Source: an uncultured Clostridia bacterium
Lineage (GTDB): Bacteria > Bacillota > Clostridia > TANB77 > CAG-508
Direction of reading: 5' to 3'
NCBI GenBank assembly: GCA_944386735.1
Contig: CALXCH010000001.1
Coordinates: 2,218 to 66,217, forward strand
Length of the DNA stretch: 64,000 nt
Shown: one piece after another, positions 4,591 to 56,497 of the stretch
Position numbering within the stretch: the first letter of the stretch is position 1
How the letters are laid out: each line of letters starts with the position of its first letter
Made by a program: the position numbers and the translations under genes
The notes under the pieces: generated by a model
The model's input: only the letters and a program-made list of their open reading frames with translations
What the model was told of the DNA's origin: nothing
Databases searched by the model: none

Positions 4591-5466
4591 ATGAAAGAAA
4601 GAGATTGTAAAATTGTTCAAGATTTATTACCTAACTATATTGAAAATTTAACAAATGAAGAAACAAATAAATATATAGAAGAACATTTAGATACTTGCAA
4701 AGATTGTAAAAAAATCTATGACAATATGAAAAAGGATTTTAATGTAGATAATAAAACTAAAGAAAAAAAGAAAGTTAAATTCTTAAAGAAATATAGGAAT
4801 AAATTAAGAATATTAGAAATTATTATAATAATTATCATAGTAATATTTATTGCAAATACAGGAAGAAAAGCATATATAATTTCAAATTTATCTGATAAAG
4901 CAAAAGAGTATGAAAATTCAAATAATTATCATGAAGTATCATATTCATTACAAGAAGGAATATTTAATAAATCTGAAATTTTTAGTATGGAAGGCAAAAA
5001 GAAATTAGTATATACGACAATTACAGATGAAGAAACTCAAATACTTACAATGAACCTTACTCAAATAGAAAATGAAAAATATGAAGGAAATATTTATTTT
5101 GATAATAGTTTAGGAAAAAATGTTGTTTTAGACCAAGAAGTTGGAGTAATGGTAGGTCCTCAAGATATTTTTAAAACTGAAAATTTAGGACAATTATTAG
5201 TATATTCAATTCCAACTTATGTAACAAGTACGAAATTTGATGGAATAGACAGTTATTATATATCAAACTTTCAAGGAGAAGGTGGAATGTATGTAAACAA
5301 AGAAACGGGACTTCCTATAAGTACTATGTCAAGTGAGATTGAATATGAGGAAGGAATAATGGGAAGGTCACCTACAACAGAATACAAATATGAATTTGGA
5401 ACAGTTACAGAAGAGGATTTTACAGAACCAGATATAAGTGAATATACAATTAAGGAAGGTATATAA
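4591..5466 (+). CDS. Anti-sigma factor, zinc-finger (HxxxCxxC) type with one TM and an extracytoplasmic domain
   Basis: Immediately follows the sigma gene (stop/start overlap region). N-terminal HLDTCKDCKK motif, a central TM segment, and GGAGG RBS before ATG 4591. Confidence 0.6.
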   Translation: MKERDCKIVQDLLPNYIENLTNEETNKYIEEHLDTCKDCKKIYDNMKKDFNVDNKTKEKKKVKFLKKYRNKLRILEIIIIIIIVIFIANTGRKAYIISNLSDKAKEYENSNNYHEVSYSLQEGIFNKSEIFSMEGKKKLVYTTITDEETQILTMNLTQIENEKYEGNIYFDNSLGKNVVLDQEVGVMVGPQDIFKTENLGQLLVYSIPTYVTSTKFDGIDSYYISNFQGEGGMYVNKETGLPISTMSSEIEYEEGIMGRSPTTEYKYEFGTVTEEDFTEPDISEYTIKEGI

Positions 5467-5581
5467 AAATATAAGGAAAGAGTAGAAATATTCTTTCCTT
5501 GTATTTTGGCTAAAAACTGGAAAAAAACTTTAAAATGTGTTATATTAGTATATGTAAATTAAAAGTAAAGGAAGACGAAAA

Positions 5582-6148
5582 ATGAAATTATTATTACATA
5601 CTTGTTGTGCACCTTGTAGTGTGTATTGCATTGATGAATTAAGAAGTGAAAATATAGAGCCAACTGTATATTGGTTTAATCCTAATATACATCCATATAT
5701 GGAATATAAAGCAAGGAGAGATTGCTTAAAAGAATATACTAAAAGTATAAATGTAAATGCTATTTTTGAAGAAAATTATGGACTAGATGATTTTTGTAAA
5801 AATGTTGTTAAATCTTTAGATACAAGATGTCAAGATTATTGTTATCCAGTTCGTCTAGAACAAACTGCAAAATATGCTAAAGAAAATGGTTTTGATACAA
5901 TTTCAACAACTCTTTTAGTTAGTCCATATCAAAAGCATGATATAATTAAAGATTTAGGAGAAGTAATTGCTAAAAAATATGGAATAGAATTTTTATATAG
6001 AGATTTTAGAGTAGGATTTAGAGAAGGACAAGCAAAAGCAAGAGAAATAGGTCTTTATATGCAAAAATATTGTGGTTGTATTTTTTCAGAAGAGGATAGA
6101 TATAGAAAAAAGATTGAAAAAGATAAGCAAAAGATATTAGTAAAATAA
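5582..6148 (+). CDS. queH: Epoxyqueuosine reductase QueH (DUF208)
   Basis: N-terminal HTCCAPCS motif and conserved Cys pattern. 188 aa. Confidence 0.8.
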   Translation: MKLLLHTCCAPCSVYCIDELRSENIEPTVYWFNPNIHPYMEYKARRDCLKEYTKSINVNAIFEENYGLDDFCKNVVKSLDTRCQDYCYPVRLEQTAKYAKENGFDTISTTLLVSPYQKHDIIKDLGEVIAKKYGIEFLYRDFRVGFREGQAKAREIGLYMQKYCGCIFSEEDRYRKKIEKDKQKILVK

Positions 6149-6182
6149 ATTTTACATACTGTTAAAAACAAGTCATACCAGA

Positions 6183-6398
6183 CTAGTATTCCTGGTATCC
6201 ACGTCTAATATAATTAACATGAGAGCAACAAGGACATTTGTAAGAAGATGTTGTTGCAAACATTCCATCATCGGGATTACTTTTTAAATCATCAAATCCA
6301 AGTTCAAGTATTGCTCCACAATATTTACAAGTTACCCGCATAAATCCTGGTTTTCCATCATTAAAAAGTTTTTTCTTTCCTTCTTTAATGACTCGCAT
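6183..6398 (-). CDS. Small zinc-ribbon protein (two CxxC pairs), unknown function
   Basis: CKYCGA...CPCCSH motifs. AGGAGG RBS 7 nt upstream of ATG (rc of 6396-6398); the longer ORF-track start lacks an RBS. Confidence 0.4.
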   Translation of the reverse strand: MRVIKEGKKKLFNDGKPGFMRVTCKYCGAILELGFDDLKSNPDDGMFATTSSYKCPCCSHVNYIRRGYQEY

Positions 6399-10947: not shown

Positions 10948-11565
10948 ATGGAAAAGAAAAAAATAATTGTATTTGGAGGATGCTTTAATCCACCGTTAAA
11001 TTCACATTTTTCACTTGCTGAACAAATTGTTAGTGAATATGCAGATGTAGAAAAAATAATATTTGTGCCAGTAAATAGTAAATATGATAAAGAAGGTTTA
11101 GTTGGTAATGAAGATAGATACCAAATGCTAAAAAGAGTGTGTGATAAAAATAAAAAGTTTAAAGTATCAAGAGTAGAAATAGATAGTGAAAGACCATTAT
11201 ATACCGTTGAGACTTTAGAGAGGTTACAAAAAGAATATAGTAAATATGATATTGCATTTGCAACAGGAAGTGATAATCTAAAAGAAATGAGCAAATGGAA
11301 AAAAGCAGACGAATTAGTAAAGAATTTTAAGGTTTTTGTGTTAGAAAGAGATAAAGACAATGTAGATGAGATAATAGAAAAAGATGAATTTTTAAAGAAA
11401 AATAAAGAGTCTTTTATAAAAGCAAAAGAAAGTATAAGAAGTAACTTGAGTTCTACTTTTGTAAGAGATAAAATAAGTAAAGGTAAGAGCATAAGATATT
11501 TAACAACAGATGACGTTATATCATATATAAAAGAACATAATTTGTATAAAAAACAAGGGAAGTGA
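10948..11565 (+). CDS. nadD: Nicotinate-nucleotide adenylyltransferase
   Basis: GGCFNPPLNSH nucleotidyltransferase motif. 205 aa. Confidence 0.85.
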   Translation: MEKKKIIVFGGCFNPPLNSHFSLAEQIVSEYADVEKIIFVPVNSKYDKEGLVGNEDRYQMLKRVCDKNKKFKVSRVEIDSERPLYTVETLERLQKEYSKYDIAFATGSDNLKEMSKWKKADELVKNFKVFVLERDKDNVDEIIEKDEFLKKNKESFIKAKESIRSNLSSTFVRDKISKGKSIRYLTTDDVISYIKEHNLYKKQGK

Positions 11566-12338
11566 TAAATATGTTAGAAAAAGAAGAACTAAGAAAAGAG
11601 TTAGATGGTGCAATTAAATGGATAAAAGATTATGTAGAAAAATCAGGTGCAAATGGATTAGTTGTAGGAGATAGTGGAGGAAAGGACTCAGCAACAGTAA
11701 TTGCAATGGCAGTAAATGCTATTGGGAAAGAAAAAGTAATTGCAGTATCAATGCCTTGTCATTCTGAGAATAGTGATTTTGATGATGCAAAATTAGTAGC
11801 AGATACTTTTGGAGTAAAATTTTTAAAAGTAGATTTAACTAAATCTTATGATGAAATGGAAAAAGAAATAGAAAATTCTTTATGTGATGAATTATCTAAA
11901 GAAGCAAAGATAAATATAAAACCACGTTTAAGAATGACAACGTTATATGGAATTGCACAGAGTTTAGGGGATTTGGTAATTGGTACAGGAAATCTTTGTG
12001 AAGCAATGGTAGGTTATACAACAAAATGGGGAGATAATAGTTCTGATTTAAATCCAATTGGAAATTTTACAGTTGAGGAAGTATTAGAAATAGGAAGGTA
12101 CTTGGGAGTTCCAAGTAAAATACTAGAAAAAGCACCAAATGATGGATTAGGTGGTGAAACAGATGAAGAAAAAATGGGGATAAAATATAGTGAAATTGCA
12201 GAAATGATAGAAACAGGAAAAACAAATGAAAATGTAAAAGAAGAAATTATAAAAAAATATAAAAATTCAAAACATAAAAGAGAGTTAGTACCAACATATA
12301 GATTTGATAGAAAAAATTATTTGAAAGAAGAGTATTAA
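11562..12338 (+). CDS. nadE: NH3-dependent NAD+ synthetase
   Basis: SGGKDS PP-loop motif. 258 aa. 4-nt overlap with nadD. Confidence 0.85.
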   Translation: MINMLEKEELRKELDGAIKWIKDYVEKSGANGLVVGDSGGKDSATVIAMAVNAIGKEKVIAVSMPCHSENSDFDDAKLVADTFGVKFLKVDLTKSYDEMEKEIENSLCDELSKEAKINIKPRLRMTTLYGIAQSLGDLVIGTGNLCEAMVGYTTKWGDNSSDLNPIGNFTVEEVLEIGRYLGVPSKILEKAPNDGLGGETDEEKMGIKYSEIAEMIETGKTNENVKEEIIKKYKNSKHKRELVPTYRFDRKNYLKEEY

Positions 12339-12341
12339 GAT

Positions 12342-12821
12342 ATGGAATATAAAATAAGAGAAATAGAAAAGAAGGATAATAAGCAAGTAGAAAATGTAAT
12401 TAGAACATGTTTAATAGAATTTGGAGGAAATCATGAGGGTCTAGCTTGGAGTGACCCAGATTTAGGAAGATTTTCTGAAGTGTATAACAAAACTGGATTT
12501 AAATATTGGGTAGTAGAAGATGAAGAAGGAAAAGTTGTAGGTGGATGTGGAATAGGTAAACTAGAAGGAACAGATGATGTTTGTGAACTTCAAAAAATGT
12601 ACTGCTTAGAAAGTGCAAGAGGAACAGGAATATCACATAAATTAATGGACTTAGCTTTGTCTTATGCTAAAAAATATTATAAGAGATGTTATATAGAAAC
12701 ATTAAGTAATATGGTAGCTGCAAATAAATTTTATAAAAAATATGGATTTAAAAGTTTAGATGAACCTTTAGTGAAGACTGAGCATTATGCTTGTGATGTT
12801 TGGTATGTAAAAGATTTATAA
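12342..12821 (+). CDS. GNAT family N-acetyltransferase
   Basis: 159 aa with acetyl-CoA binding-like core (RGTGISHKLM). Confidence 0.6.
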   Translation: MEYKIREIEKKDNKQVENVIRTCLIEFGGNHEGLAWSDPDLGRFSEVYNKTGFKYWVVEDEEGKVVGGCGIGKLEGTDDVCELQKMYCLESARGTGISHKLMDLALSYAKKYYKRCYIETLSNMVAANKFYKKYGFKSLDEPLVKTEHYACDVWYVKDL

Positions 12822-17289: not shown

Positions 17290-17851
17290 GTGAAAAATAT
17301 AAAACTAGTTATTACTATTGTAGTAATTTTACTTGTCATTGTATTTGTTTTTATTTTTAAAGATAAAATACTAAGAATAATTTACCCTAAAACTTATCAA
17401 GATATAGTTTCAAATTATGCTAGAGAATATAATGTTGAAGAAAATTTAGTATTTGCAGTTATAAAAGCTGAAAGCAACTTTGATGAAAATGCTGTGTCGC
17501 ATAAAAATGCTATTCGGTTTAATGCAGATTATGGAAGAGACAGCAGATGATATTGCAACAAGATATGGAATTGACATAGATAAAGAAAACATAAAAGAAT
17601 CTGTAACAAATGTACAAAATAATATAAATATTGGAACAAAATATTTATCTACTTTGCTTGATAAATATGGAAATAAAGAGGTTGCAGTTGCAGCGTATAA
17701 TGCAGGAATAGGAACTGTTGATAATTGGATAGCCAAAAATATAATAAAAGCAGATGGAAGTGATATTGAAAATATACCCTATAAAGAAACTAACAATTAT
17801 GTAAGGAAAATATTAAGAAATTATAAAATTTATCAAAGTATATATAAATAG
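17290..17851 (+). pseudogene. Lytic transglycosylase (Slt domain) interrupted by a 1-nt insertion at about 17515
   Basis: ORF1 ends ...AESNFDENAVSHKNAI then RFNADYGRDSR*. The ORF2 frame continues GLMQIMEETADDIATRYG...AAYNAGIGTVDNW. Removing C at 17515 restores the ESxF...GLMQ catalytic motif. Confidence 0.7.
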
Positions 17852-17912
17852 CTAGACAAATGATGAAAAATAAAATAAAATAGAAATGCAAAAAGTAAAA
17901 GGAGAAGTTAAT

Positions 17913-19166
17913 ATGCTAGTAGAACAATTACTATTTATATTTGTTTCGTTTGCAATGTTTGTATATATGTTTTTTAGAATGATAAGAAGAAATGATACTA
18001 GCTATGTAATTATTTTAGTATTAGAGGCAATGGGAATAGCTCTTAATTTCCTAGAAGTTTTATTTGATATAAAACTAAATGTTTTTTTTATGATTCTAAA
18101 ATATGTATTAGCAGTGTTAGTGCCAATAATAATTATTGCTTTAGAAAAACAAGGAATATACTTATATGAAGCAGTTAATTTGACTAAAGCTAAAATTTTT
18201 CTTATGTTTAAAGATAATAAAAAAGCAAAGGATGCTTTACTTAGTATACTTGATAAAGACAAAAATAGTTATAAAGCACACAAGATGCTTGCTCAAATTT
18301 ACGAAAAAGAAGGCGGAATGAGAAAGGCTATTGATGAATATGTACAAGCAATTGATATAGACAAACAAGATTACGATTCTTATTATAAAGTTGCAGAATT
18401 ATTAAATGGATTAGATAAAAAAGACGAAGCAGCCGAGATGTTATTTAATTTATTAAATAAGAAACCAGATACATATGAGGCATCTATATTATTAGGCGAT
18501 ATTTTAATTGATACTGAAATGTATAAAGAGGCAGTAAATGTATATCAAGAGGCATTAAAATATAATCCATATAGTTATGATATAAATTATAATTTGGGAA
18601 TTGCATATACTATGCTTAATGACTTCCAAAGTGCAAAAACTTGCTATGAGAAAGCTGCACAAATTAATAGTGTAGCATATGCATTAAAATATAATTTAGC
18701 TGAAATTGCACTTATATATAAAGACATAGAAGAAGCACAAAAGAAGTTTTTAGAAGCGGTAGATGAGGAAGAACTTTCAGCAGATAGTTATTATGAATTA
18801 TCTAAAATAGCTTTAATTAAAAATGATAAAGATACAGCTATAAAATATATAAATACAGCAATAGATATAGATAGTAAGAAAATCGTAGATAAAGTAAAAA
18901 AAGATCCAATTTTTATACCTATTATGGCAAGAATTTCAATTCCATTTAATTTAGAGAATAAAGAACAAGTAGATGAAAAACAACCAAAGAAGGAATTAAG
19001 TAAAAAAGAAATAAAAGCTAAAGAACATTTAGAAGAAATGTCTGAGATTACAAGGCATTTAAGCTATAATGATATTAATTTGTTAAAGAAAAACAGAAAA
19101 GAAAAATTAGAAGAAAAAGAAGTGAATGACCAAAAAGAAATAGACCAAAAAGAAAGACGTGATTAA
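17913..19166 (+). CDS. TPR-repeat protein with N-terminal transmembrane segments
   Basis: AAAGGAGAAG RBS before ATG 17913. Multiple TPR-like helices, including the pair EALKYNPYSYDINYNLGIAY. Confidence 0.55.
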   Translation: MLVEQLLFIFVSFAMFVYMFFRMIRRNDTSYVIILVLEAMGIALNFLEVLFDIKLNVFFMILKYVLAVLVPIIIIALEKQGIYLYEAVNLTKAKIFLMFKDNKKAKDALLSILDKDKNSYKAHKMLAQIYEKEGGMRKAIDEYVQAIDIDKQDYDSYYKVAELLNGLDKKDEAAEMLFNLLNKKPDTYEASILLGDILIDTEMYKEAVNVYQEALKYNPYSYDINYNLGIAYTMLNDFQSAKTCYEKAAQINSVAYALKYNLAEIALIYKDIEEAQKKFLEAVDEEELSADSYYELSKIALIKNDKDTAIKYINTAIDIDSKKIVDKVKKDPIFIPIMARISIPFNLENKEQVDEKQPKKELSKKEIKAKEHLEEMSEITRHLSYNDINLLKKNRKEKLEEKEVNDQKEIDQKERRD

Positions 19167-43821: not shown

Positions 43822-44179
43822 ATGGGGATGAAATGGTTTCGACATAATACTAGAAGTATAGATTGCAAGTAGTGGATGGTCGCTTTGGCCACTTAAAAAA
43901 AGCGAAAGTAAATATAAACGCTGATAACGAAGAATTAGCATTAGCTGCCTAAGTTGCGGCTACGCTTTACTAAAAAGTCCCACCTTTTTAGATAAAGTGT
44001 TATAACAGTGGGAAACGAAGCTACTTTTGCTTTTAAAGTAGTAGGTATTTTAAAAAGCTATATTTTAATAAAACCTGTTTGTTGGTGTTATTAAAATGAA
44101 TAAAATAAACAAACTAAACTTGTAGATATCTATGTGGAAGGTATTGTGGACAGGAGTTCGACTCTCCTCATCTCCACCA
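43822..44179 (+). ncRNA. ssrA: tmRNA (SsrA), tag reading frame GCT GAT AAC GAA GAA TTA GCA TTA GCT GCC TAA (ADNEELALAA)
   Basis: 5' GGGGATG and 3' GGACAGGAGTTCGACTCTCCTCATCTCCACCA tRNA-like ends. Internal tag ORF at 43926-43958. Terminator hairpin follows. Confidence 0.9.
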
Positions 44180-44383: not shown

Positions 44384-45139
44384 ATGGCTACTATTGTTCA
44401 CACTGACGAAGACTTTGCAAAAACTTATGTTTTTCGAACTCAAGATGAGCACGTTTTGTATATTAGCGATTTTAAGGAAGGAGTTGCTACAGTAGAATTA
44501 ACAGATGACCATACACTTGATTCTTTGGCAAGAGTAATTTTCGGCTGTTTTTCAAAAAAATCAAATTTTGCTGAAGCGATTCTTAAAGCTTATCATTGTG
44601 ATGAAAATGTGAGATTTAAGGGATTTGCAATTAATATTAACGGAAAATTGGTAAATATTACTAAGGAAGACTGTGACATTGATGAAATTATCGAATTGAT
44701 AAAGCAAGCTGAGAAGGAAACTCAAGAAGAAACAATGGCAAATTCATTTGGACAGCTTGTGGAATTTTTTACAGGAATTCCAAAAGAAGTAAGTTATGTG
44801 AGAGCAATTGTTAAAATTGAGTTTAAAGATGAAGCATCTGAAAAATCATGGAATGAATGGTTTGAAAGTGCTGAGAGCGAAGAACAAAATGAAATTGTTA
44901 GCTTTGGAGATTTGCTAGCTAGGTATTCACAAAGTGCAATGAAAGATGGATATCCTTTTGAAACTGCTGTAACTAGGTCATATCTGAAACTTTCTGCAAT
45001 GGATGAAAATCTAGATGATGCAATGAAACAATATGCAATTGATAAGCTGATTGAATGTTGGAAATATGGTAAAGAACTGAAGGAATGGAATGATGGTAGA
45101 ACCAAGTCTGACCTGGAAAATCTGATTGATGAAATCTAG
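44384..45139 (+). CDS. Acidic 251-aa protein, uncharacterized family, paralog 1 of 3 in tandem
   Basis: Own promoter TTGAAA-17-TATAAT, RBS, and terminator CCTCCTTTAAAGGAGG. N-terminal VHTDEDF...GVATVE...GCFSKKSNF...AYHCDEN is shared with the paralogs. Confidence 0.6.
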   Translation: MATIVHTDEDFAKTYVFRTQDEHVLYISDFKEGVATVELTDDHTLDSLARVIFGCFSKKSNFAEAILKAYHCDENVRFKGFAININGKLVNITKEDCDIDEIIELIKQAEKETQEETMANSFGQLVEFFTGIPKEVSYVRAIVKIEFKDEASEKSWNEWFESAESEEQNEIVSFGDLLARYSQSAMKDGYPFETAVTRSYLKLSAMDENLDDAMKQYAIDKLIECWKYGKELKEWNDGRTKSDLENLIDEI

Positions 45140-45308: not shown

Positions 45309-46064
45309 ATGATTACATTTGTACATACTGACGAGGAATTTGTGAAGATGTACAAGTTTCGGACACAGAACAATCATGTTGTGCTTGTAAAAGAATTTGA
45401 AAATGGAGTTGCAACAATTGAACCAACATGGGATTACAAAAATTTAGATGAGTTTATTGAAGTTATTTCAGGTTGCCTTAATGGAAAATCTAATTTTAAA
45501 AAAGAGCTTATGAAAGCCTATGGCCATGATGAAAATTCTGAACTTAAGGGAATTAATATTATCATATTAGGTATCAATGTGTTTATTTCGCCTGAAAAGA
45601 AGAACAAAGATGAAATTCAAGCTATTATTGATTCAAGTATGATAAAACATTTTGAAAGAAACTTACGAGAAGTAATCGATAGTTCATTCCATTGTCGGTA
45701 TTGTGATTATATAACTAATATTGTCTATAGTACGGAAATTGAATTTGTAAGTAAAGAGGCAGAAAGAAAGTGGAGAAAGAAGACTGATAAGTTAAGAGAA
45801 ACAGAAACAGGATTCTTTATAGTAGACTATGCAGACAACTTAGCTAAATATATTCAGTATCTTGTTGAGGATATGGATAAAAAGTTTCCTACAGTAATAG
45901 ATGAAGCAATGGAAGACATTGATTCATTGACGATGGCAGAAGGTGACACTATACTAGAAGCAATCTATTTGCTTGTTGATACTTGGAAATATGGAGATGA
46001 ACTTATAAAATGGAATAGAAAAGTAATCGATTTTCAAATGCAAAGTATCATAGATGACCTCTAA
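45309..46064 (+). CDS. Acidic 251-aa protein, paralog 2 of 3
   Basis: VHTDEEF...GVATIE...GCLNGKSNF...AYGHDEN, C-terminal WKYGDELIKWN. Own promoter and terminator CCTCTAGAAATAGAGG. Confidence 0.6.
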   Translation: MITFVHTDEEFVKMYKFRTQNNHVVLVKEFENGVATIEPTWDYKNLDEFIEVISGCLNGKSNFKKELMKAYGHDENSELKGINIIILGINVFISPEKKNKDEIQAIIDSSMIKHFERNLREVIDSSFHCRYCDYITNIVYSTEIEFVSKEAERKWRKKTDKLRETETGFFIVDYADNLAKYIQYLVEDMDKKFPTVIDEAMEDIDSLTMAEGDTILEAIYLLVDTWKYGDELIKWNRKVIDFQMQSIIDDL

Positions 46065-46259: not shown

Positions 46260-47027
46260 ATGAAAACCATCATCAAAAAAGTAAATAAAATTTTTTCTTT
46301 TAAAGACGAGAAAGGATATGAAGTCCTTGTAGATGGATTTAAAGATGGATTTGCAACAATCCGGATTCCAATTACTGTTACTAGATATGAGGATAAAATC
46401 TCTGCTTGCATAGTAGACGGAAATAATCTTATTAGCTTTTTATCAGGCTGTTTTGGCAAAGAGTCTAATTTCGTAAAAATGCTGTTTGAAACATATGAAT
46501 GTGATTCAACTGCTGAATTTCTTGGATTTAAGTTAAAGGCAGGAGATATGTCATGCACAGTAACTAGGGAAAATTCAGCTTTTTACAGCATTAAAGAAAT
46601 CATAGAAAATTTCCTTGGCATATATGCTGAAGCAGAAGCAGAAAAAATTAACAAGCGAACAGATGAGTATAATAAAGAAAGGGAAGATTTGGATAATCTT
46701 CTCGATAGTCTAGATATAGCTTTTAAGAGTGATCAAGCAGAAGATAAATATATAGAAGAAGCTGAAAGGTTAGATGAAAACTTCTTGGGATATGGACAAG
46801 ATTTTGTTGCACATGTTCAGTACCTTGTGGAACAAGAAGGCTACAATATTTCTGATGCTGTTAATGAGACCTATAGAAGGTTTGATTCAATCAGTTTCAA
46901 TATTGAAGAAGGATTAGCATCAATACAATTCATTTGTAGGTTCTGCCTCTATGGAGATGAGATTTATGAAAGTTATTTTAATATTTGGATGAAGATGTAT
47001 AACGATGAGCTAAATAACTATCTCTAA
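46260..47027 (+). CDS. Acidic 255-aa protein, paralog 3 of 3 (more diverged)
   Basis: GFATIRIP...SGCFGKESNF...TYECDSTAEFLGF, C-terminal LYGDEIYESYFNIW. Promoter TTGACT-17-TATAAT. Terminator CCCTCTAGAAATAGAGGG. Confidence 0.55.
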   Translation: MKTIIKKVNKIFSFKDEKGYEVLVDGFKDGFATIRIPITVTRYEDKISACIVDGNNLISFLSGCFGKESNFVKMLFETYECDSTAEFLGFKLKAGDMSCTVTRENSAFYSIKEIIENFLGIYAEAEAEKINKRTDEYNKEREDLDNLLDSLDIAFKSDQAEDKYIEEAERLDENFLGYGQDFVAHVQYLVEQEGYNISDAVNETYRRFDSISFNIEEGLASIQFICRFCLYGDEIYESYFNIWMKMYNDELNNYL

Positions 47028-47183
47028 GAATGATTAACGAGAGTGTTAAATAACCTCTTAAAAAAGATTTTATCTTTCCCTCTAGAAATAGAGGGTTCTT
47101 TTTATTTTTTAGATTTGTAATAATAGAATTTTCAGTTGAATAAAATAAAATGTGAACATTTTGTGAAAAATTAAAAATAGGTA

Positions 47184-47212
47184 TTGACAATTAGCAAAAT
47201 AGGGTATACAGT
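47184..47212 (+). promoter_or_regulatory. groESL promoter (TTGACA -35 with TATACA/TACAGT -10)
   Basis: Consensus -35 immediately upstream of CIRCE. Confidence 0.5.
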
Positions 47213-47213
47213 A

Positions 47214-47240
47214 TTAGCAGTCAATAAGATAGAGTGCTAA
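47214..47240 (+). promoter_or_regulatory. CIRCE operator (HrcA binding site) TTAGCAGTC-N9-GAGTGCTAA
   Basis: Matches the CIRCE consensus TTAGCACTC-N9-GAGTGCTAA with one mismatch, 21 nt upstream of groES. Confidence 0.85.
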
Positions 47241-47543
<303 letters not shown>

Positions 47544-47579
47544 TGAAAAATTTAAAAAGAAAGTTTTAGAAAGGAATGA

Positions 47580-49217
<1,638 letters not shown>

Positions 49218-49264
49218 TAAATAAATATAAGAGAAGTTACAGGTATTGTAGCTTCTCTTATATG

Positions 49265-50143
49265 TTATAACCAATTTTTAATTACATCTTCAGAAACATT
49301 CATATTATTATAACCAATCCCAATTTTTCTATCAGGTTTTTTATCTCCGTGACAGTCAGTACCAGCGGACATAAACATATTATTTTGTTTGCAGTAATTT
49401 TCTAAAGTCTTTATTTGGGTAGAACTAAAACCAGAGTAATAAACTTCTACACCATCAATTATATTGTTATTTCTTAAATTATCTAAAAATTCAATGTAAT
49501 TATCTAATGGATACAAGTATAAATGTGCTATAAAAACTTTTCCACCATATTTTCTAATTTTATTTGAAACTTCTTTTGCAGATGGATATTGTTTAGAAAA
49601 ATTTCTATATAATATAAAATTAGGATTACAAGTAGATTTCCTAAAAATAATACCACTATTATTCCACTCTTCATCAGTAAAGAATTTTTTGTTTTCTTCA
49701 TATTTGGTAATATCATCATAAATAATTTTTACAGGAAATTTTTGTACTTCATTATATTGTAAATTAGGAGTTGTTTTTATATTATTTTTCTTACATAAGT
49801 CTAAAAATTCTTGAAATTCTTTTTTATATCCATTAATTTCATTGTTTTTTGTATATGTTTTATCTATCCAGTCTTGTAATTTAAAGGGGTCAAAACCATA
49901 TCCTAAAAGTTCGATTTTAACACTATCAAAAACACAATTAAATTCTCCTCCAGTTACAATTCTTCCAGAAAAGTATTTTTTTACATCAATATCTTTTAAC
50001 TTTATATGTGGAAGAGATGTGTCATGGTCTGTAATTGCTAAAGTTGTAACATTATTTTTTGCAGCATTAGATAGCAGTTCTTCGATTGTCCATGTACCAT
50101 CTGAAAATATTGTATGTGTATGTAAATCTACCATTTTTATCAC
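49265..50143 (-). CDS. PHP-domain phosphoesterase
   Basis: N-terminal DLHTHTIFSDG ... ITDHDT PHP motifs. 292 aa. Confidence 0.65.
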   Translation of the reverse strand: MIKMVDLHTHTIFSDGTWTIEELLSNAAKNNVTTLAITDHDTSLPHIKLKDIDVKKYFSGRIVTGGEFNCVFDSVKIELLGYGFDPFKLQDWIDKTYTKNNEINGYKKEFQEFLDLCKKNNIKTTPNLQYNEVQKFPVKIIYDDITKYEENKKFFTDEEWNNSGIIFRKSTCNPNFILYRNFSKQYPSAKEVSNKIRKYGGKVFIAHLYLYPLDNYIEFLDNLRNNNIIDGVEVYYSGFSSTQIKTLENYCKQNNMFMSAGTDCHGDKKPDRKIGIGYNNMNVSEDVIKNWL

Positions 50144-50296
50144 CTATTTTATTTTAAAAATTTTTTTAAGTATATATTTTTTTATTATTTTTGTCCATTG
50201 TATAAAAAAATTAAATAAAATTTTATACAAAAATAAATATTTTTAATTGTTGATTTTTTCTGTTAGTTAAGGTATAATAAGTCTTGTATTACTTAT

Positions 50297-50372
50297 GCCA
50301 AAATAGCTCAGTTGGTAGAGCAACGGATTCGTAACCCGGAGGTCAGCAGTTCGATTCTGCTTTTTGGCACCA
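50297..50372 (+). tRNA. tRNA, most likely Thr (anticodon CGU), 76 nt with encoded CCA
   Basis: GCCAAAATAGCTCAGTTGGTAGAGCAACGGATTCGTAACCCGGAGGTCAGCAGTTCGATTCTGCTTTTTGGCACCA. Acceptor, D and T arms are perfect. The anticodon stem has only 3 WC pairs. Has its own promoter and terminator. Confidence 0.65.
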
Positions 50373-50555
50373 ATACAAATTTTATCAAACTTTATTAATT
50401 GAAAATCAAATTATTATAAGAAAATAGGCAATTAGTTAGAAGTAACTAGTTGCTAATTTTTTGTGCTTTTTATTTAAGGATGAGAAGGACTGGAATTAAT
50501 AAAAATAACATGCTATACTAAAATAAATGATAAAAAATAAAAGAGGGTGAAAAAT

Positions 50556-51263
50556 ATGAAGGAATTAGACAAAATTTTTGAGTATTTAAATGATTGGATG
50601 AAATTACCAAAATATCAATTAGAAAGAAGAGTCGATATATTTTTTTCAATATATTTAGAAGAAATATTAAGTAAAAAATTAGAAATAGGAAAAGAACAGA
50701 TAAAAGAAATATTGCCAGAATTTCCACTAAGAAAAGAGAAAAAAACAGGAAAAGAAATATATGCTAGTAATAATGCAGATTATGCAGTATTTGTGGCAGA
50801 AAACGAAAAAATAAAAATGTATTTGGTAGAATTAAAAACGGAAATGGATTCTATAAGTGGTATTCAAAAAGAATACTATAAAACAGCTAAGGGAAAAAAG
50901 TTAAAAGAAATTTTAAAAGATATAATAGAAATAGAGAAAAAAAGTGATCAATGGAGAAAATATGATTATTTATTAGGGAAATTAGAAAGACTAGATTTAA
51001 TAAAGATTAATAAAGATAATGGAAAAAATTATAGAAAAGAATGGAAAGTAATAACAGATAATATTAGTAAAGATAAAATTGAAGTTATTTATATTACACC
51101 AATTAATCCAGAAAACTGTGAATATACAAATATTACATTTAAAGATGTGAGAGAATTTTTGAAAAATGGAGAAGGTGAATTTGTGAAAAATTTTATTAAT
51201 TTATTAGTAAATATAGAAAAATACAATGAAGAAGAAAAAAATAGAAGAAAAAGTAAATTGTAA
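50556..51263 (+). CDS. Hypothetical 235-aa protein with a PD-(D/E)xK-like nuclease core (ADYAVFVA ... LVELK)
   Basis: AGAGGG RBS 8 nt before ATG 50556. D-x18-ExK pattern within predicted beta strands. Forms an operon with the next gene (10-nt gap). Confidence 0.5.
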   Translation: MKELDKIFEYLNDWMKLPKYQLERRVDIFFSIYLEEILSKKLEIGKEQIKEILPEFPLRKEKKTGKEIYASNNADYAVFVAENEKIKMYLVELKTEMDSISGIQKEYYKTAKGKKLKEILKDIIEIEKKSDQWRKYDYLLGKLERLDLIKINKDNGKNYRKEWKVITDNISKDKIEVIYITPINPENCEYTNITFKDVREFLKNGEGEFVKNFINLLVNIEKYNEEEKNRRKSKL

Positions 51264-51273
51264 GGAGTAATTT

Positions 51274-52428
51274 ATGGAAATAACAATACATAGAGGGACA
51301 CACCAAATAGGAGGATGTGTTACTGAAATAGAATCTAGTAAAGGTACAAAAATAATAATAGATATTGGTGAAAACTTACCAACAGAAGATGGAAGAAAAT
51401 TACCAGAACTTAATGTAGAAGGATTAAAAGAAGGTAAAGAAGATATAGATGCTGTATTTGTAACACATTATCATGGAGACCATATAGGGCTATTTAATAA
51501 GATTTCACCTAAGATACCAATATATATTGGAGAAATTTCAAAACAAATATATATGATGGTAGCAAAGAAACTTGCAAGTGCTGGTATAATAGGAGAGGAA
51601 GATATAGAAAGAATTAACAAGTTTATAGGTTATAAAATTGGAGAAAAAATAAAAATAAATGATATAATAGTTACACCAATAGAAGTTGACCATTCAGCAT
51701 TTGATGCACATATGTTATTAATTGAATGTGACGGTAAAAAAGTATTACATACAGGAGATTTTAGAACACATGGACAAAGAGGGAAAGCAGTTATTCCAGC
51801 ATTAGAGATATATGTAGGAAAGGTAGATTGTTTAATATGTGAAGGAACTACGCTTTCAAGAGAAAAAGAAACTCAGATAACAACAGAATTTGAAATACAA
51901 AAAGAAGCTAAAGAAATTTTTGAGAAGAATATGTATTCTTTTGTAATATGCAGTAGTACTAATATTGATAGAATTGCAGCAATACATAAGGGAGCAATAG
52001 AAGCAGGAAGATTATTTGTATGTGATGAATATCAAAAAGAGATTTTAATGTATATAGATACTGTTTCAAGAAGTACATACTATAAATTTAAAGGAAAAGT
52101 ACTTAATTATGCAGAAAACATTAAAAATCTTATGAAAGAAAAAGGATTTGTTATGCTTGTTAGACCAAATTATATATCTAAAAAAGTTATGAGAGAATTT
52201 AAGGATAGTGTGTTTATTTATTCACAATGGAAAGGTTATTTAAGTGAAAAATATAAAAATGATTATGAGTATTTACAAAGTTTTGTACCAAGAGATTATA
52301 TATATTTACATACAAGTGGTCATGCAGATTTTGAAGCAATAAAAAAGATTTGTGAAGCAGTAAAACCCCAAATAATAATTCCAATACATGGAGAAAAACC
52401 AGAAGAATTTAATAATATGCGGACTTGA
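51274..52428 (+). CDS. Metallo-beta-lactamase-fold nuclease with a beta-CASP-like C-terminus (384 aa)
   Basis: MBL motifs D(IIDIGE), HYHGDH, TGDFR, and the beta-CASP motif C HTSGHA near the C-terminus. Confidence 0.65.
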   Translation: MEITIHRGTHQIGGCVTEIESSKGTKIIIDIGENLPTEDGRKLPELNVEGLKEGKEDIDAVFVTHYHGDHIGLFNKISPKIPIYIGEISKQIYMMVAKKLASAGIIGEEDIERINKFIGYKIGEKIKINDIIVTPIEVDHSAFDAHMLLIECDGKKVLHTGDFRTHGQRGKAVIPALEIYVGKVDCLICEGTTLSREKETQITTEFEIQKEAKEIFEKNMYSFVICSSTNIDRIAAIHKGAIEAGRLFVCDEYQKEILMYIDTVSRSTYYKFKGKVLNYAENIKNLMKEKGFVMLVRPNYISKKVMREFKDSVFIYSQWKGYLSEKYKNDYEYLQSFVPRDYIYLHTSGHADFEAIKKICEAVKPQIIIPIHGEKPEEFNNMRT

Positions 52429-52505
52429 AAATTGTAAGATATTATTAATTAAAGATGGTAAAAGTATTAAGTTGTAAATAATAGATAAAAAAAGGGGATA
52501 ATATC

Positions 52506-53108
52506 ATGAATAAAATTTTAGATTTTTTTAAAACAAAAAAAGTTGTAAAAATAATAGGAATAGTAATATGTATAATTGTTATAATATTAGCAATTTGGTT
52601 ATGGTCTATTTTTGGACCTACTTTTAAAGTTGTAAATATTTTAGGTAAAATTAACGGAACATCGTATAGTTTAGAGAAAAGTAAAGGTAGTGTGGCTTAT
52701 AATGGAAGATGTAGAGTGAATGTTTATCCGTCAGAGAATTTATATGAACCAGATCTTGTACAGGATCAAACCAATAAACAAGCGATATTTTTGTATGTTG
52801 GAAGTGCTACAAGTAATAAAAAAGGAGCTGTTTCTATAACCGTTGAGTCGATGGCTGAGTCAAGTAGTAGTATTGTAAGTAGTATGAATACAATAACAAG
52901 TACAAAAGAACCAACAATAAGTAGAGAATACAATACTTTAAATTATTTTGTGTACAATGGAAAAAATTATTTTTATAACTTAAATCCATATGGAATAATG
53001 TTTACAACGCCAATTGATAATAATTATTTGTATTGGGTAATGATTCAAGATTATAGTAATTTAACTAAAGAAGATATAGAGTCGATACTTTATTTTAAGG
53101 TTGTATAA
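52506..53108 (+). CDS. Hypothetical membrane-anchored extracytoplasmic protein (200 aa)
   Basis: N-terminal TM helix, Ser/Thr-rich middle. No family recognized. Confidence 0.4.
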   Translation: MNKILDFFKTKKVVKIIGIVICIIVIILAIWLWSIFGPTFKVVNILGKINGTSYSLEKSKGSVAYNGRCRVNVYPSENLYEPDLVQDQTNKQAIFLYVGSATSNKKGAVSITVESMAESSSSIVSSMNTITSTKEPTISREYNTLNYFVYNGKNYFYNLNPYGIMFTTPIDNNYLYWVMIQDYSNLTKEDIESILYFKVV

Positions 53109-53122
53109 TTGGAATGTTTAAA

Positions 53123-53151
53123 TTTACAAAAAAGCCAAGATATGCTATAAT
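53123..53151 (+). promoter_or_regulatory. Promoter TTTACA-17 nt-TATAAT for the 53231 gene
   Basis: Spacing and hexamers close to consensus. Confidence 0.5.
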
Positions 53152-53230
53152 AATAGTATGTAAGATGCATTAACTCCATTTTGCATCAAAGTATTAACGT
53201 CTATGTAAAAAGACTTTTTTAGGAGGAAAA

Positions 53231-53644
53231 ATGAAGAATGGTTACGACTACGCTGTCGAAATGATGAGGAAGTATCCTCATGATGAAGCGACAGACTTGG
53301 AAGAACGCTACTACGACTATGCAGGTGAAGTTTCAAGACTCCTTCGTGTTAAGAAGCTGACCGGAACGTATAGTGTAAACTCAGGTGCTAGGAAGACCTT
53401 CAGGCAAGAGTATGAGAAGCTCGTTGATAAGGCTATCTGCATGATTAATGGCTCAGCGGAGATTGTCTTCCAAGGTACTTATGGGCATGTTTTACCTAAC
53501 CCAGATGGTGCAATTCGCTTCACAGTTGATGTGAGCAATATCATCAAAAAGCTTCCTAAACTTCAAAAGGGTGAAAGCTATGTCTTTCCAACTCTTAAGG
53601 TAGACAAAAAGTGGGGACAGGTGAATTTCCAAGTAGGTAAGTGA
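53231..53644 (+). CDS. Small protein (137 aa), unknown family, high-GC (about 43%) copy of a duplicated gene
   Basis: AGGAGG RBS. C-terminal KKLPKLQKGESYVFPTLKV is shared with the paralog at 53909. The GC content is far above local background. Confidence 0.55.
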   Translation: MKNGYDYAVEMMRKYPHDEATDLEERYYDYAGEVSRLLRVKKLTGTYSVNSGARKTFRQEYEKLVDKAICMINGSAEIVFQGTYGHVLPNPDGAIRFTVDVSNIIKKLPKLQKGESYVFPTLKVDKKWGQVNFQVGK

Positions 53645-53691
53645 CAATAAACACAAAAGGCTGGTTCAGATAGGACTAGTCTTTTGTGTTA

Positions 53692-53758
53692 TTTTTCTAA
53701 TAAAGTAAGCAAAAAAGTATGCAGAATTGGAAAAGTATGGTATACCATTATATCAATG
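53692..53758 (+). repeat. 67-nt duplicated promoter-containing segment, copy 1 (TTTTTCTAATAAAGTAAGCAAAAAAGTATGCAGAATTGGAAAAGTATGGTATACCATTATATCAATG)
   Basis: About 85% identical to 54301-54368. Contains an extended -10 TGgTATACC. Confidence 0.7.
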
Positions 53759-53804
53759 TAGTCATAAAGCAAGAGGTCAACTTTATTGAAGTTGGCATTT
53801 TTGC

Positions 53805-53833
53805 TTGCAAAAAATGGGAGAAAAGTGTATAAT
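53805..53833 (+). promoter_or_regulatory. Strong promoter TTGCAA-17 nt-(TGt)TATAAT for the 53909 gene
   Basis: Near-consensus hexamers with an extended -10. Confidence 0.6.
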
Positions 53834-53908
53834 AATAATGTTTAAAGGTATAACTCCTTTTTACACTAAGATGTTGGCAACTTGTAAAAGACTTTTTAAG
53901 GAGGAAAA

Positions 53909-54259
53909 ATGAGTGGTTATGCAAATGATGTTGCAAATAGACTTTGGATTAGAAATGGAAGAAACAGAAAAGAAGTTCAAGCTAATGTATTAATTCAATT
54001 TAGAGATTGTTTAGATGATTTTATAGATGAAAATATGCATGAAATAAAAGTTAGGCCTGTTTGTGTTATTTTTCAGAATCCTAGAAAACCATATAAGAGG
54101 GAATTTAAAAGAAAAGGCGTGACTTATATTGAAAAAAGTTTGGATTCGGTAGTAAAAAAACTTCCTAAACTTAGTGAGGGAGAATACTACGACTTTCCTA
54201 GTCTTGAAATTATTTTGGAACGGAATGGAACGGGTTTTATCTATTTAAGATATGCATAA
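53909..54259 (+). CDS. Small protein (116 aa), native-GC paralog of the 53231 gene
   Basis: AAGGAGG RBS. C-terminal KKLPKLSEGEYYDFPSLEI. Terminator GCAGCTTAAGG...CCTTAAGTTGC downstream. Confidence 0.55.
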   Translation: MSGYANDVANRLWIRNGRNRKEVQANVLIQFRDCLDDFIDENMHEIKVRPVCVIFQNPRKPYKREFKRKGVTYIEKSLDSVVKKLPKLSEGEYYDFPSLEIILERNGTGFIYLRYA

Positions 54260-54300
54260 CACAAAAAAGCAGCTTAAGGGCGATATTGCCTTAAGTTGCT

Positions 54301-54368
54301 TTTTTCTAATAAAATAAGTAAAAAACAGTACACAGATTTGGAAAAGTATGGTATACTATTATACAATG
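54301..54368 (+). repeat. 67-nt duplicated promoter-containing segment, copy 2 (likely the promoter of the flavodiiron gene)
   Basis: Contains TGgTATACT about 30 nt upstream of the flavodiiron RBS. Confidence 0.7.
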
Positions 54369-54399
54369 AGGAAGAAAATGTAAAAGGAGGAAAATTGTT

Positions 54400-55569
54400 A
54401 TGGCAGATATGAATATATCAAAAGATATAACTTGGATAGGTGCAAGTGATAATGACCTAAAATTATTTGAAAGTCAATATGTATTAGAACATGGAATGAG
54501 CTATAATTCATATATAATAAAAGATGAGAAAAATGTAGTGTTAGATACAATAGATGAGCACGTGACTGATATTTGGCAAGAAAATTTGGAGAAAGCATTA
54601 GGAGGAGAAAAACCAGATTATTTAATAGTTTCACATATGGAACCAGACCATGCATATAATATAGGATTACTTGCTAAAAAATATCCAGACATGAAATTAG
54701 TAGGAAATCAAATGACATTTAATATGCTTTTAAATTTCTTTAGTGATATAGATTTAAGTAGTAGAAAAGTAATTGTAACAGAAGGAGATATACTAGATAT
54801 AGGAAAACATAAATTACAATTCTTTATGGCTCCTATGGTTCATTGGCCAGAGGTAATGGTAACATATGAGCAAACAGAAAAGGTATTATTTTCAGCAGAT
54901 GCATTTGGAAAATTTGGTTCATTAGATTATGATGAAGAATGGGACTGCGAAGCAAGGAGATATTATTTTGGAATAGTAGGAAAATATGGAACACAAGTAC
55001 AAGCATTATTAAAAAAGGCGGCTACATTAGATATAAAAATGATATGTCCATTACATGGACCAATATTAAAAGAAAATTTAGAATATTATATAAATAAATA
55101 TGATATCTGGAGTAAATATGAGCCAGAAGAAGAAGGTGTATTTATTGCAGCAGCAAGTATATATGGAAATACATTAAATGCAGCAAAAGAGATGGCTGAA
55201 ATTTTAAAAGAAAAAGGAGCTAAAAAAGTTGTTGTATCAGACTTAGCAAGAGAAGATTGGGCAGAGGCAATAGAAGATGCATTTAGATATTCTAAATTAA
55301 TAGTTGCATCATCTAGCTATAATATGGGAATATTCCCACCAATGGAACATTTCTTAAGACATTTAAAAGATAGAAATTATCAAAAAAGAACTGTTGGAAT
55401 AATAGAAAATGGTTCTTGGGCACCATCAGCAGGAAGAGGAATGAAAGCAATAATTTCTGAGATGAAAGATTTAAATATAGTAGAACCAATGGTAACTATA
55501 AAATCAAGAATGAATGCAGAAAATAAAAAACAAATGGAAAGTTTAGCAGATGAAATATTAAAAAACTAA
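54400..55569 (+). CDS. Flavodiiron protein (class A FprA-type: metallo-beta-lactamase-like + flavodoxin domains)
   Basis: SHMEPDHAYN di-iron motif and a C-terminal flavodoxin-like domain. 389 aa. Confidence 0.8.
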   Translation: MADMNISKDITWIGASDNDLKLFESQYVLEHGMSYNSYIIKDEKNVVLDTIDEHVTDIWQENLEKALGGEKPDYLIVSHMEPDHAYNIGLLAKKYPDMKLVGNQMTFNMLLNFFSDIDLSSRKVIVTEGDILDIGKHKLQFFMAPMVHWPEVMVTYEQTEKVLFSADAFGKFGSLDYDEEWDCEARRYYFGIVGKYGTQVQALLKKAATLDIKMICPLHGPILKENLEYYINKYDIWSKYEPEEEGVFIAAASIYGNTLNAAKEMAEILKEKGAKKVVVSDLAREDWAEAIEDAFRYSKLIVASSSYNMGIFPPMEHFLRHLKDRNYQKRTVGIIENGSWAPSAGRGMKAIISEMKDLNIVEPMVTIKSRMNAENKKQMESLADEILKN

Positions 55570-55591
55570 CTTTAGGAAGGAGAGCTTAAGA

Positions 55592-56497
55592 GTGGGATTT
55601 TTTGAGAAATTAAAAAGAGGAATGAACAAAACAAAAAGTTCATTTGATGAAAAAATAAGTAATGTATTTAAAAGCTTTAGAAAAGTAGATGAAGACTTTT
55701 TAGAGGAATTAGAAGAAATTTTAATAATGTCTGATATTGGAGTGGATACTTCAGTAAATATAATAAATAATTTAAGAGATAGGATAAAAAAAGAAAAAAT
55801 TCAAGATGAAGAAGATGTAAAAAAAGCATTAAGAGAAGAAATGCAAAAGATTTTAGATGTGGCAGATGTAAGCTTACATTTAAATACAAAACCATCTGTA
55901 ATTCTAGTTGTAGGAGTAAATGGCGTTGGTAAAACTACTTCAATTGGAAAAATTGCAAATAGATTAGCAAAAGATGGAAAGAAGGTAGTAGTTGCAGCAG
56001 CAGATACATTTAGAGCAGCAGCAGTAGAACAATTAGAGATATGGGCTAATAGAGCAGGGGCAGATATAGTAAAAAGAGAAGAAGGAGTAGACCCAGCATC
56101 TGTTGTATATGATGCAATTAGGATAACAAGAGAAAAGAATGCAGATGTATTAATAGTAGATACAGCAGGAAGATTACATAACAAAAAATATTTAATGGAT
56201 GAATTAAATAAAATTCAAAAAGTAATAAATAAAGAAATGCCTGACTCAGATAAAGAAGTATTATTAGTAATAGATGGAACAACAGGCCAAAATGCTATTT
56301 CACAAGTAAAAGCTTTTAAAGAAGAAGCGGATATAACAGGGTTAGTAATTACAAAATTAGATGGAACAGCAAAAGGTGGAGTTGCAATAGGGATAGTTTC
56401 AGAAAACAAAATTCCAATCAAATTTATCGGAGTTGGTGAACAAATAGATGACATGGAGGTATTTAATGCAGAAGATTTTGTAAAAGCTATAATCTAA
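55592..56497 (+). CDS. ftsY: Signal recognition particle receptor FtsY
   Basis: SRP GTPase motifs GVNGVGKTT and DTAGR. 301 aa. GTG start. Confidence 0.9.
   Translation: MGFFEKLKRGMNKTKSSFDEKISNVFKSFRKVDEDFLEELEEILIMSDIGVDTSVNIINNLRDRIKKEKIQDEEDVKKALREEMQKILDVADVSLHLNTKPSVILVVGVNGVGKTTSIGKIANRLAKDGKKVVVAAADTFRAAAVEQLEIWANRAGADIVKREEGVDPASVVYDAIRITREKNADVLIVDTAGRLHNKKYLMDELNKIQKVINKEMPDSDKEVLLVIDGTTGQNAISQVKAFKEEADITGLVITKLDGTAKGGVAIGIVSENKIPIKFIGVGEQIDDMEVFNAEDFVKAII

Follow-up and report, generated by a model that had tools for sequence, protein, structure and literature searches.

The DNA analysed here, called the window, is a stretch of 64,000 nucleotides from an uncultured Clostridia bacterium. 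Directly behind a tRNA-Thr gene it carries two adjacent genes, referred to as A and B. Gene A codes for a predicted PD-(D/E)xK nuclease, and gene B for a predicted nuclease that combines a metallo-beta-lactamase (MBL) domain with a beta-CASP domain. The pair is best read as an operon of two nucleases that is self-contained and horizontally exchanged, and as one variant of a module that is widespread and has no name. Judged from sequence, the probability that it would defend the cell against incoming nucleic acid, as a stand-alone innate or restriction-type system, is about one half.

The first line of evidence is a related lineage from which the pair is absent. Contigs of this lineage (L107, L109 and L110; L numbers denote loci and contigs throughout) were recovered by exact GroES sequence, at 88-95% nucleotide identity. 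Their gene order is groES-groEL-(117 aa)-PHP-tRNA-Thr-200 aa-136 aa-FprA-like-ftsY, without A and B. When window positions 47000-56000 are compared with L107 by blastn, homology stops at 50375, which is 3 nt past the tRNA gene, and restarts at 52522, inside the next gene, which codes for a 200-residue membrane protein. Between these points the window has 2,146 nt, against about 125 nt at the same place in L107. This variable segment holds A and B as its only genes. The same tRNA-Thr is found in L107 and L110. It forms the left border of the variable segment and lies outside the cassette. L107 also has a hairpin of its own after the tRNA, CTTATGAAC...GTTCATAAG followed by seven T residues, in the same place as that of the window and different from it. 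A and B are accessory genes, gained or lost together 3' of tRNA-Thr. The initial annotation had treated this tRNA site as one that might vary between strains; a lineage without the pair does exist, and A-B is not a core housekeeping unit. As in a tRNA-associated island, variable DNA lies directly 3' of the tRNA gene. An integrase and a duplicated tRNA 3' end are missing: around the 2,146-bp segment there is no integrase open reading frame (ORF), and no flanking direct repeat or att site beyond chance.

The comparison also defines what the cassette does not include. It had been suggested that the membrane protein gene downstream of B (52506-53108) might belong to the same unit. This proposal fails, since the gene is kept in the lineage that lacks A and B. 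The gene upstream of the tRNA was rejected as a component for the same reason, being conserved with or without the pair. It codes on the minus strand (49265-50143), divergently from tRNA-Thr, for a PHP-domain protein of 289-292 residues (PF02811, 7.4e-9). Because the membrane protein gene and the PHP gene occur in both versions of the locus, neither is part of the cassette.

The second line of evidence is the recurrence of the pair elsewhere. In independent contexts, homologues of A at 40-70% identity are directly followed by a B-family gene. Within the subclade of A, an MBL gene is present in six of seven contexts, the window included; the exception, L123, has none. The two genes are separated by 2-25 nt in four contexts (the window, L001 with a gap of 2 nt, L121 and L125), and the pairs of L121 and L125 adjoin large serine recombinases. 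Variants of the arrangement also occur. The MBL gene of L007 is split, and in L004/L005 an extra PD-(D/E)xK gene of 293 codons is found between A and B, so that both types of partner stand at one locus.

Starting from B, the association is wider still. A scan of species-representative genomes gave 49 loci with a B-family gene, from Clostridia, Alpha-, Beta- and Deltaproteobacteria, Myxococcota, Acidobacteriota, Gemmatimonadota and others. At most of them an ORF of 300-390 residues abuts the MBL gene, commonly with a 4-nt overlap of stop and start codons, and these abutting ORFs carry an hD...x(8-25)...hhExK motif. The co-occurrence in other genomes that the initial annotation had left to be examined is clear: by searches with hidden Markov models, a D...ExK protein is encoded next to B at 40 of the 49 loci. 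The usual partner, here called A2, is upstream of B at 33 loci and downstream at one. Five further loci have the L029-type partner (IDL...LFELK) and one has a unique type (L025); at the remaining nine there is no partner or none could be assessed. Across 28 loci the pair has no conserved third gene.

The partners belong to at least four sequence families, which are swapped within clades of B. Gene A represents a rarer type, called A1. A fifth variant, CDLVSF...ILELKK, is encoded on the Butyrivibrio plasmid pCY186. The A2-type proteins have no match in Pfam, NCBIfam or PADLOC, and in an alignment of 22 sequences their R58, Y65, D155, E157, D173, E190 and K192 are invariant. In a profile-profile comparison the catalytic motifs of A1 and A2 fall in register, with a probability of only 9.9% (E 0.0032). 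Because of this low value the two are treated as different families of one superfamily. The same exchange can be seen from the side of B, whose homologues at 60-70% identity have different upstream genes. The B protein of the window is 61-72% identical to B proteins that are paired with A2 or solo, but only 34-36% identical to the A1-paired B of the L001/L004/L121 clade; the B of L125, also paired with A1, is 61% identical. In a neighbour-joining (distance) tree of B the partner types are intermixed. B is thus the conserved core of the module, around which the PD-(D/E)xK partner has been exchanged repeatedly.

Gene A is a predicted RecB-like PD-(D/E)xK nuclease of the rarer, A1-type partner family. 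Pfam, NCBIfam, PADLOC and PHROGs contain no match to it. Among 5.8 billion proteins, a word-indexed search returned homologues in just 30 clusters at 90% identity, while an exhaustive profile search for the A1 family returned 1,665 representative clusters, mainly of stand-alone proteins with 200-260 residues. These homologues, and the thousands that B has, show that A and B are both real genes. A scan of IMG/VR found no relatives of A, a fold search of BFVD gave weak PD-(D/E)xK matches only, and sequence searches of the PDB with the A1 and A2 profiles returned nothing significant. Residues invariant in 22 homologues of A include E23, R24, R25 and D27 (PKYQLERRxD), E55 (PEF), D75 (NADYA), E92 and K94 (ELKT) and Q104. 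The motif Q104xxxY108 is kept in 21 of the 22 sequences. Together these residues form a series D...ExK...QxxxY, which we take to be the signature of RecB/Cas4-type PD-(D/E)xK nucleases. With its conserved D...(D/E)xK core and an alpha-beta-beta-beta-alpha-beta fold in a confident predicted structure, A belongs to the PD-(D/E)xK superfamily. The initial annotation had given the core as D-x18-ExK; the core and the fold hold, while the spacing is D75-x16-E92-x-K94.

Gene B codes for a minimal MBL plus beta-CASP enzyme, a predicted nuclease distinct from housekeeping RNase J. It matches the Pfam models PF12706 (Lactamase_B_2, 5.9e-12) and PF07521 (RMMBL, 7.3e-8), as well as PF00753. MBL motifs 1-4 are D30, H65-x-H67-x-D69-H70, H140 and D162, and beta-CASP motifs A, B and C are E190, H350 and H372. 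None of the seven varies across 28 B-family sequences, which come from several phyla and range from Clostridia to Myxococcota. The HTSGHA segment with H350 aligns with HVSGHA of RNase J, and PIHGE with H372 aligns with PVHGE. The MBL motifs and the beta-CASP assignment proposed in the initial annotation are thus borne out by Pfam, fold and motifs, with one correction: HTSGHA is motif B and not, as had been stated, motif C. An AlphaFold2 model of B (pLDDT 86.5) gives Foldseek TM scores of 0.72-0.75 to RNase J, CPSF73 and IntS11. The complete set of motifs and the two-domain fold make B a member of the beta-CASP family.

Membership in RNase J is a different matter. The score of B is 79.7 bits with TIGR00649 (cut-off 400) and 63.9 bits with NF047419 (cut-off 820). 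The protein ends just past motif C, without the C-terminal domain that brings RNase J to a length of about 550 residues; it had already been noted that B is far shorter. Of the solved structures, EF2904 (PDB 2az4, 1.9e-21) is the closest to B, ahead of RNase J, CPSF73, IntS11 and SNM1A. In addition, L126 has a separate RNase J-like gene of 483 codons besides a homologue of B, and the B family is therefore distinct from housekeeping RNase J.

The case for defence is made by the company that the pairs keep. The 140 neighbours of 27 pairs were compared with Pfam and PADLOC (E<1e-10). Pfam matches include WYL (four), NgoFVII (two), a D12 methyltransferase, MutS, RuvB (two) and ExoI (two). PADLOC matches are WYL (four), BrxA/B/C, DpdF, PDC-S01, PDC-S04, PsyrT, UzuA and MTase_II. 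Twelve plasmids carry a homologue of B. On pCY186 a WYL-partner-MBL set stands beside McrC, on the Rhizobium plasmid pRphaN671a the pair adjoins an Eco57I-type methyltransferase and a GIY-YIG nuclease, and on the Prevotella plasmid pE2-28 a longer MBL gene adjoins two DUF262 genes and a WYL gene. In L004/L005 (6240-7859) a trio of GIY-YIG, SRA and GIY-YIG genes lies directly upstream of the A1-type gene and looks like a modification-dependent restriction module. L017/L018 lie among resolvases, SLFN/AlbA_2 and an Eco57I methyltransferase. Such surroundings are the pattern that is used for nominating defence systems. The anti-phage defence or toxin function proposed in the initial annotation finds circumstantial evidence in these WYL, BREX, Dpd, restriction-modification, McrC, recombinase and plasmid neighbours, and its description of an operon without metabolic context is supported.

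A defence pair of this composition could work in two steps. The PD-(D/E)xK subunit would recognise a feature of foreign DNA, such as ends, structures or modifications, and would cut first. Nucleases of the kind to which B belongs are known to act as 5'->3' exonucleases, and the beta-CASP subunit would then degrade the product in the 5'->3' direction, possibly in a complex with its partner. If the partner were swapped, recognition would change. Less confidence attaches to this specific scheme than to defence as such. A wider proposal is put forward tentatively, as doubtful rather than probable: the module may be a phylum-spanning form of innate immunity, in which interchangeable sensor-nucleases of the RecB-like PD-(D/E)xK kind recruit or license a conserved beta-CASP exonuclease that works without a helicase, and the partner family sets the target specificity. 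It would be the first beta-CASP defence outside type VII CRISPR.

Several observations weigh against a defence function. The locus in the window lies among housekeeping genes (groEL, ftsY); an integrase, flanking repeats and further defence genes are all missing from it. The defence-type neighbours elsewhere were counted without a matched background control. No known defence-system model matches: A and the typical partner have no match at all in PADLOC (2023 PADLOC-DB), and those of B, to LmuA-MBL (60 residues, 19-78, 3e-6) and to RTasMBL, cover the HxHxDH region only. The earlier statement that the pair corresponds to no named system stands after the PADLOC run, in which neither protein was convincingly matched. 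A histidine at motif C is the state of RNase J and CPSF73, and a valine that of SNM1 and Artemis. B shares the histidine with beta-CASP enzymes that act on RNA, so its substrate need not be DNA. Solo B genes exist as well: L126 has no remnant of a partner, and L022 is likewise without one. Among 37 environmental loci with distant A1 relatives (23-38% identity over the whole query), an MBL gene adjoins the A1-type gene in only three (L073, L079 and L087), although many of the 37 are on short metagenome contigs. A-type proteins can therefore work without B, and the A1 domain is a general-purpose nuclease module, which was recruited to B in the Clostridial subclade. Finally, several neighbourhoods contain repair or replication genes, namely SbcCD, MYG1, ExoI, RuvB, MutS, UvrB, DNA pol III alpha and UDG.

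The last point leads to the rival explanation that survives best, although it is itself improbable. In this explanation the pair would serve DNA repair or end processing as an accessory unit: a RecB-like nuclease and a 5'->3' beta-CASP exonuclease would jointly trim damaged or blocked ends or cross-links. The repair genes near several pairs, including two RuvB, two ExoI and UvrB fragments, fit this explanation. So does the D-ExK-QxxxY series, typical of end-processing nucleases of the RecB/Cas4 type. Further examples are provided by the distant A1 relatives, next to which lie DUF2779 genes (five loci), a DEAD helicase, UDG, PHP and DNA polymerase III finger/OB segments. In L077 (308-2140, 2194-3516) the A1 domain is fused to a polymerase III finger and OB segment and followed by a PHP-domain gene. 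In L079 (14-2954) the order is MBL, A, finger/OB and PHP-like, and in L004 a DNA_pol3_alpha gene (11123-12745) follows the MBL gene. A1-type nucleases and DnaE-like polymerase fragments are thus recurrently linked. Another recurrent A1 partner, apart from the beta-CASP pairing, is the DUF2779-type gene. The A1-adjacent genes of L085 (5632-7134), L100 (5832-7163), L092 (4815-5501), L098 (93-494) and L101 (290-553) form one BLAST cluster, and the two members scanned with Pfam (L085 and L100) are DUF2779 proteins with an RNase_H_2-like region. The PHP genes that recur near these distant relatives probably share no more than coincidence with the PHP gene beside the cassette of the window. Against repair stand the presence or absence of the pair at the level of lineages, the frequent swapping of partner families and the occurrence of pairs on plasmids and beside restriction-modification, BREX and WYL genes. 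Ligase, Ku and helicase genes are not consistently linked, and B has no NCBIfam match to the ligase-associated repair exonuclease family.

A second rival, with a distinctly smaller chance, is a toxin, addiction or abortive-infection module. One nuclease would be toxic and restrained by the other protein, and the module would be kept through post-segregational killing or would kill the infected cell. A small, tightly coupled two-gene cassette that occurs on plasmids and next to recombinases is what such a module would look like, and a Fic gene and a HicB gene are found in some neighbourhoods. However, both catalytic sites are complete, so neither protein resembles an antitoxin, and both are large for components of a type II toxin-antitoxin system. 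The solo B genes without an obvious partner are also hard to square with an unchecked toxin.

Slightly less probable again is that the functions of A and B are unconnected, in which case a lone restriction-like nuclease and a lone MBL hydrolase merely travel together. In favour of this, most distant A1 members have no adjacent MBL gene. The solo B genes and the additional PD-(D/E)xK gene between A and B in L004 point the same way. Independence is less easily reconciled with adjacency in six of the seven A-subclade contexts, with a D...ExK partner at 40 of 49 B loci, often joined by overlapping stop and start codons, and with the joint gain or loss of A and B in the lineage of the window.

The weakest rival makes B a housekeeping-type paralogue of RNase J that matures or degrades RNA, such as the tRNA next to it, with A as its helper; RNase J and CPSF73 are indeed its best named sequence and fold matches, its motif C is a histidine and a tRNA gene directly precedes the cassette, but the low RNase J score, the missing C-terminal domain, the related lineage that keeps the same tRNA without the pair, homologous pairs in unrelated contexts without tRNAs and the separate RNase J-like gene of L126 make it very improbable.

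The features of the locus are listed in Table 1. The lengths of the two genes, the distance between them and the coordinates of the locus are as initially annotated. The gap between A and B is 10 nt, and the GGAG ribosome-binding site of B overlaps the stop codon of A. A mechanical ORF list starts gene A at a GTG codon (50547), for which the ATG at 50556 is preferred. The tRNA gene had been described as having its own promoter and terminator, and this description agrees with a promoter-like TTGATT-17-TATAAT 5' of it (50250-50278) and with the hairpin behind it, which is probably the end of the tRNA-Thr transcript. Apart from the tRNA, Rfam finds nothing between 49 and 55 kb. The promoter candidate of the A-B operon is a pattern match only, in AT-rich DNA; the whole stretch has about 27% G+C, with coding strongly biased to the plus strand.

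Table 1. Features of the A-B locus, in positions of the window
Feature	Position	Strand	Basis and remarks
tRNA-Thr(CGT)	50297..50372	+	ARAGORN; Rfam RF00005, 65.7 bits
Lineage-specific segment, 2,146 bp, entire cassette	50376..52521	.	blastn breakpoints against L107
Terminator-like hairpin and T-run	50427..50454	+	12-pair stem, GGCAATTAGTTAGAAGTAACTAGTTGCT and AATTTTTTGT; inside the lineage-specific segment
Weak sigma-70-like promoter candidate of the A-B operon, TTAATA-17-TAAAAT	50496..50524	+	consensus scan, 9/12
Gene A, 235 aa, predicted nuclease	50556..51263	+	ATG start; GAGGGTG ribosome-binding site 6 nt upstream
Gene B, 384 aa, compact MBL plus beta-CASP predicted nuclease	51274..52428	+	

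The flanks of the cassette contain groEL, the PHP gene, small unknown genes, an FprA-like gene and ftsY, and they differ from the related lineage at other points too. L107 has IS605 OrfB/TnpB-type genes (Cas12f1-like TNB domain) near a polysaccharide deacetylase gene and after ftsY (5110-6363 and 17773-18948), and an extra gene of 117 codons (12043-12396) between groEL and the PHP gene. Because all of these are absent from the window, the stretch differs by several small insertions or deletions. Downstream of the cassette are two small paralogous genes (53231-53644 and 53909-54259), which code for 137 and 116 residues and are 22% identical (E about 1e-6). A strong promoter-like site and a hairpin terminator accompany each of them, and the local G+C fraction is 0.34, compared with about 0.27. 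Their sole family match is a weak one to PADLOC CARF_HEPN (5e-4). The related lineage has a single gene of 136 codons at this site, which cannot be aligned at the DNA level; hypervariable DNA is thus found for a second time, 1 kb away from the cassette.

On the other side of groES the window has a tmRNA gene (43824-44179), followed by two tandem genes of 251 codons (44384-45139 and 45309-46064). Both match PF25186 (Tad4) in the hits computed beforehand for L010, an identical locus. Between them and groES is a third gene, of about 255 codons (46260-47027), which has no match. The related lineage has a single Tad4-like copy. Upstream, L109 and L113 contain a phage-like block with an Amidase_2/CW_7 lysin, a run of small ORFs and HicB, which suggests a tmRNA-associated prophage or its remnant.

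What the pair means depends on which reading is correct. If A-B is a defence system, it would be a new compact immune architecture of two genes, without methyltransferase, ATPase or protease. It would give a function to two large protein groups annotated as "hypothetical" or "MBL fold metallo-hydrolase", namely the A1 family with its 1,665 clusters and the A2 family, for which there is no Pfam model. It would also bring innate immunity into the range of the beta-CASP nucleases, next to their known roles in mRNA 3'-end processing, RNA decay and DNA repair. If the pair serves in repair, it would be a minimal, helicase-free unit for end processing. The swapping of partners around a fixed core is a natural experiment in the exchange of specificity modules. 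In either case, the catalytic residues and natural lineages with and without the pair are now at hand for direct tests.

No description of a PD-(D/E)xK plus beta-CASP pair was found in the open-access literature, nor was any named system found that matches A-B, a composition that has not yet been named. A number of known systems share parts of it. B has MBL motifs 1-4, beta-CASP motifs A-C, the histidine at motif C and the two-domain fold in common with the RNase J/CPSF73/IntS11 branch. Compared with RNase J, it lacks the C-terminal dimerisation domain, is accessory and is paired with a PD-(D/E)xK gene. The nearest solved structure, EF2904 of E. faecalis, is encoded in an ABC-transporter operon for sugars and has no partner of this kind. 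In L119 (OR846619.1, 3295-7570), the record of an Enterococcus "phage" that is flagged UNVERIFIED_ORG and looks like host DNA, the MBL gene of the EF2904 type stands between two ABC sugar-permease genes and the gene of a solute-binding protein, with no PD-(D/E)xK partner. EF2904 was rejected as a functional lead: besides its operon and its lack of a partner, the literature assigns it no function.

Among immune systems, Shedu (SduA, DUF4263), which with other stand-alone PD-(D/E)xK defence nucleases is one of the nearest known counterparts, can be set apart from A, which matches no DUF4263 or Shedu model. Some likeness is seen in the trypsin-MBL pairs of Avs, Hachiman, Lamassu and DRT, in Canu and in 6A-MBL, where a separate MBL-fold nuclease gene likewise stands beside a variable partner in conflict-type loci. 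The MBL nucleases of protease-gated pairs resemble DNA-uptake (ComEC-type) MBLs and are activated by the neighbouring protease (PMC12799240). In contrast, B is of the beta-CASP type, and neither the cassette nor its flanks contain a protease gene. With the 6A-MBL model (NF058524), B scores 20.6 bits, below the cut-off of 220. Restriction-modification systems differ in having a methyltransferase, which is absent from the A-B segment.

Two comparisons remain. With AddAB/RecBCD and Artemis/SNM1 as the reference, A shares the RecB-like D-ExK-QxxxY signature and is combined with a second nuclease. Unlike those systems, neither A nor B has a helicase or ATPase domain, and the pair is accessory rather than core; its activity on DNA ends is purely inferred. 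The second comparison is with Cas14 of type VII CRISPR-Cas. B scores 29.7 bits with its model (NF045584, cut-off 800), and there is no cas gene among the ORFs that flank the cassette. Any targeting by A-B would be protein-based and not guided by CRISPR RNA (crRNA). Cas14 nevertheless provides the precedent for a beta-CASP nuclease as an immune effector.

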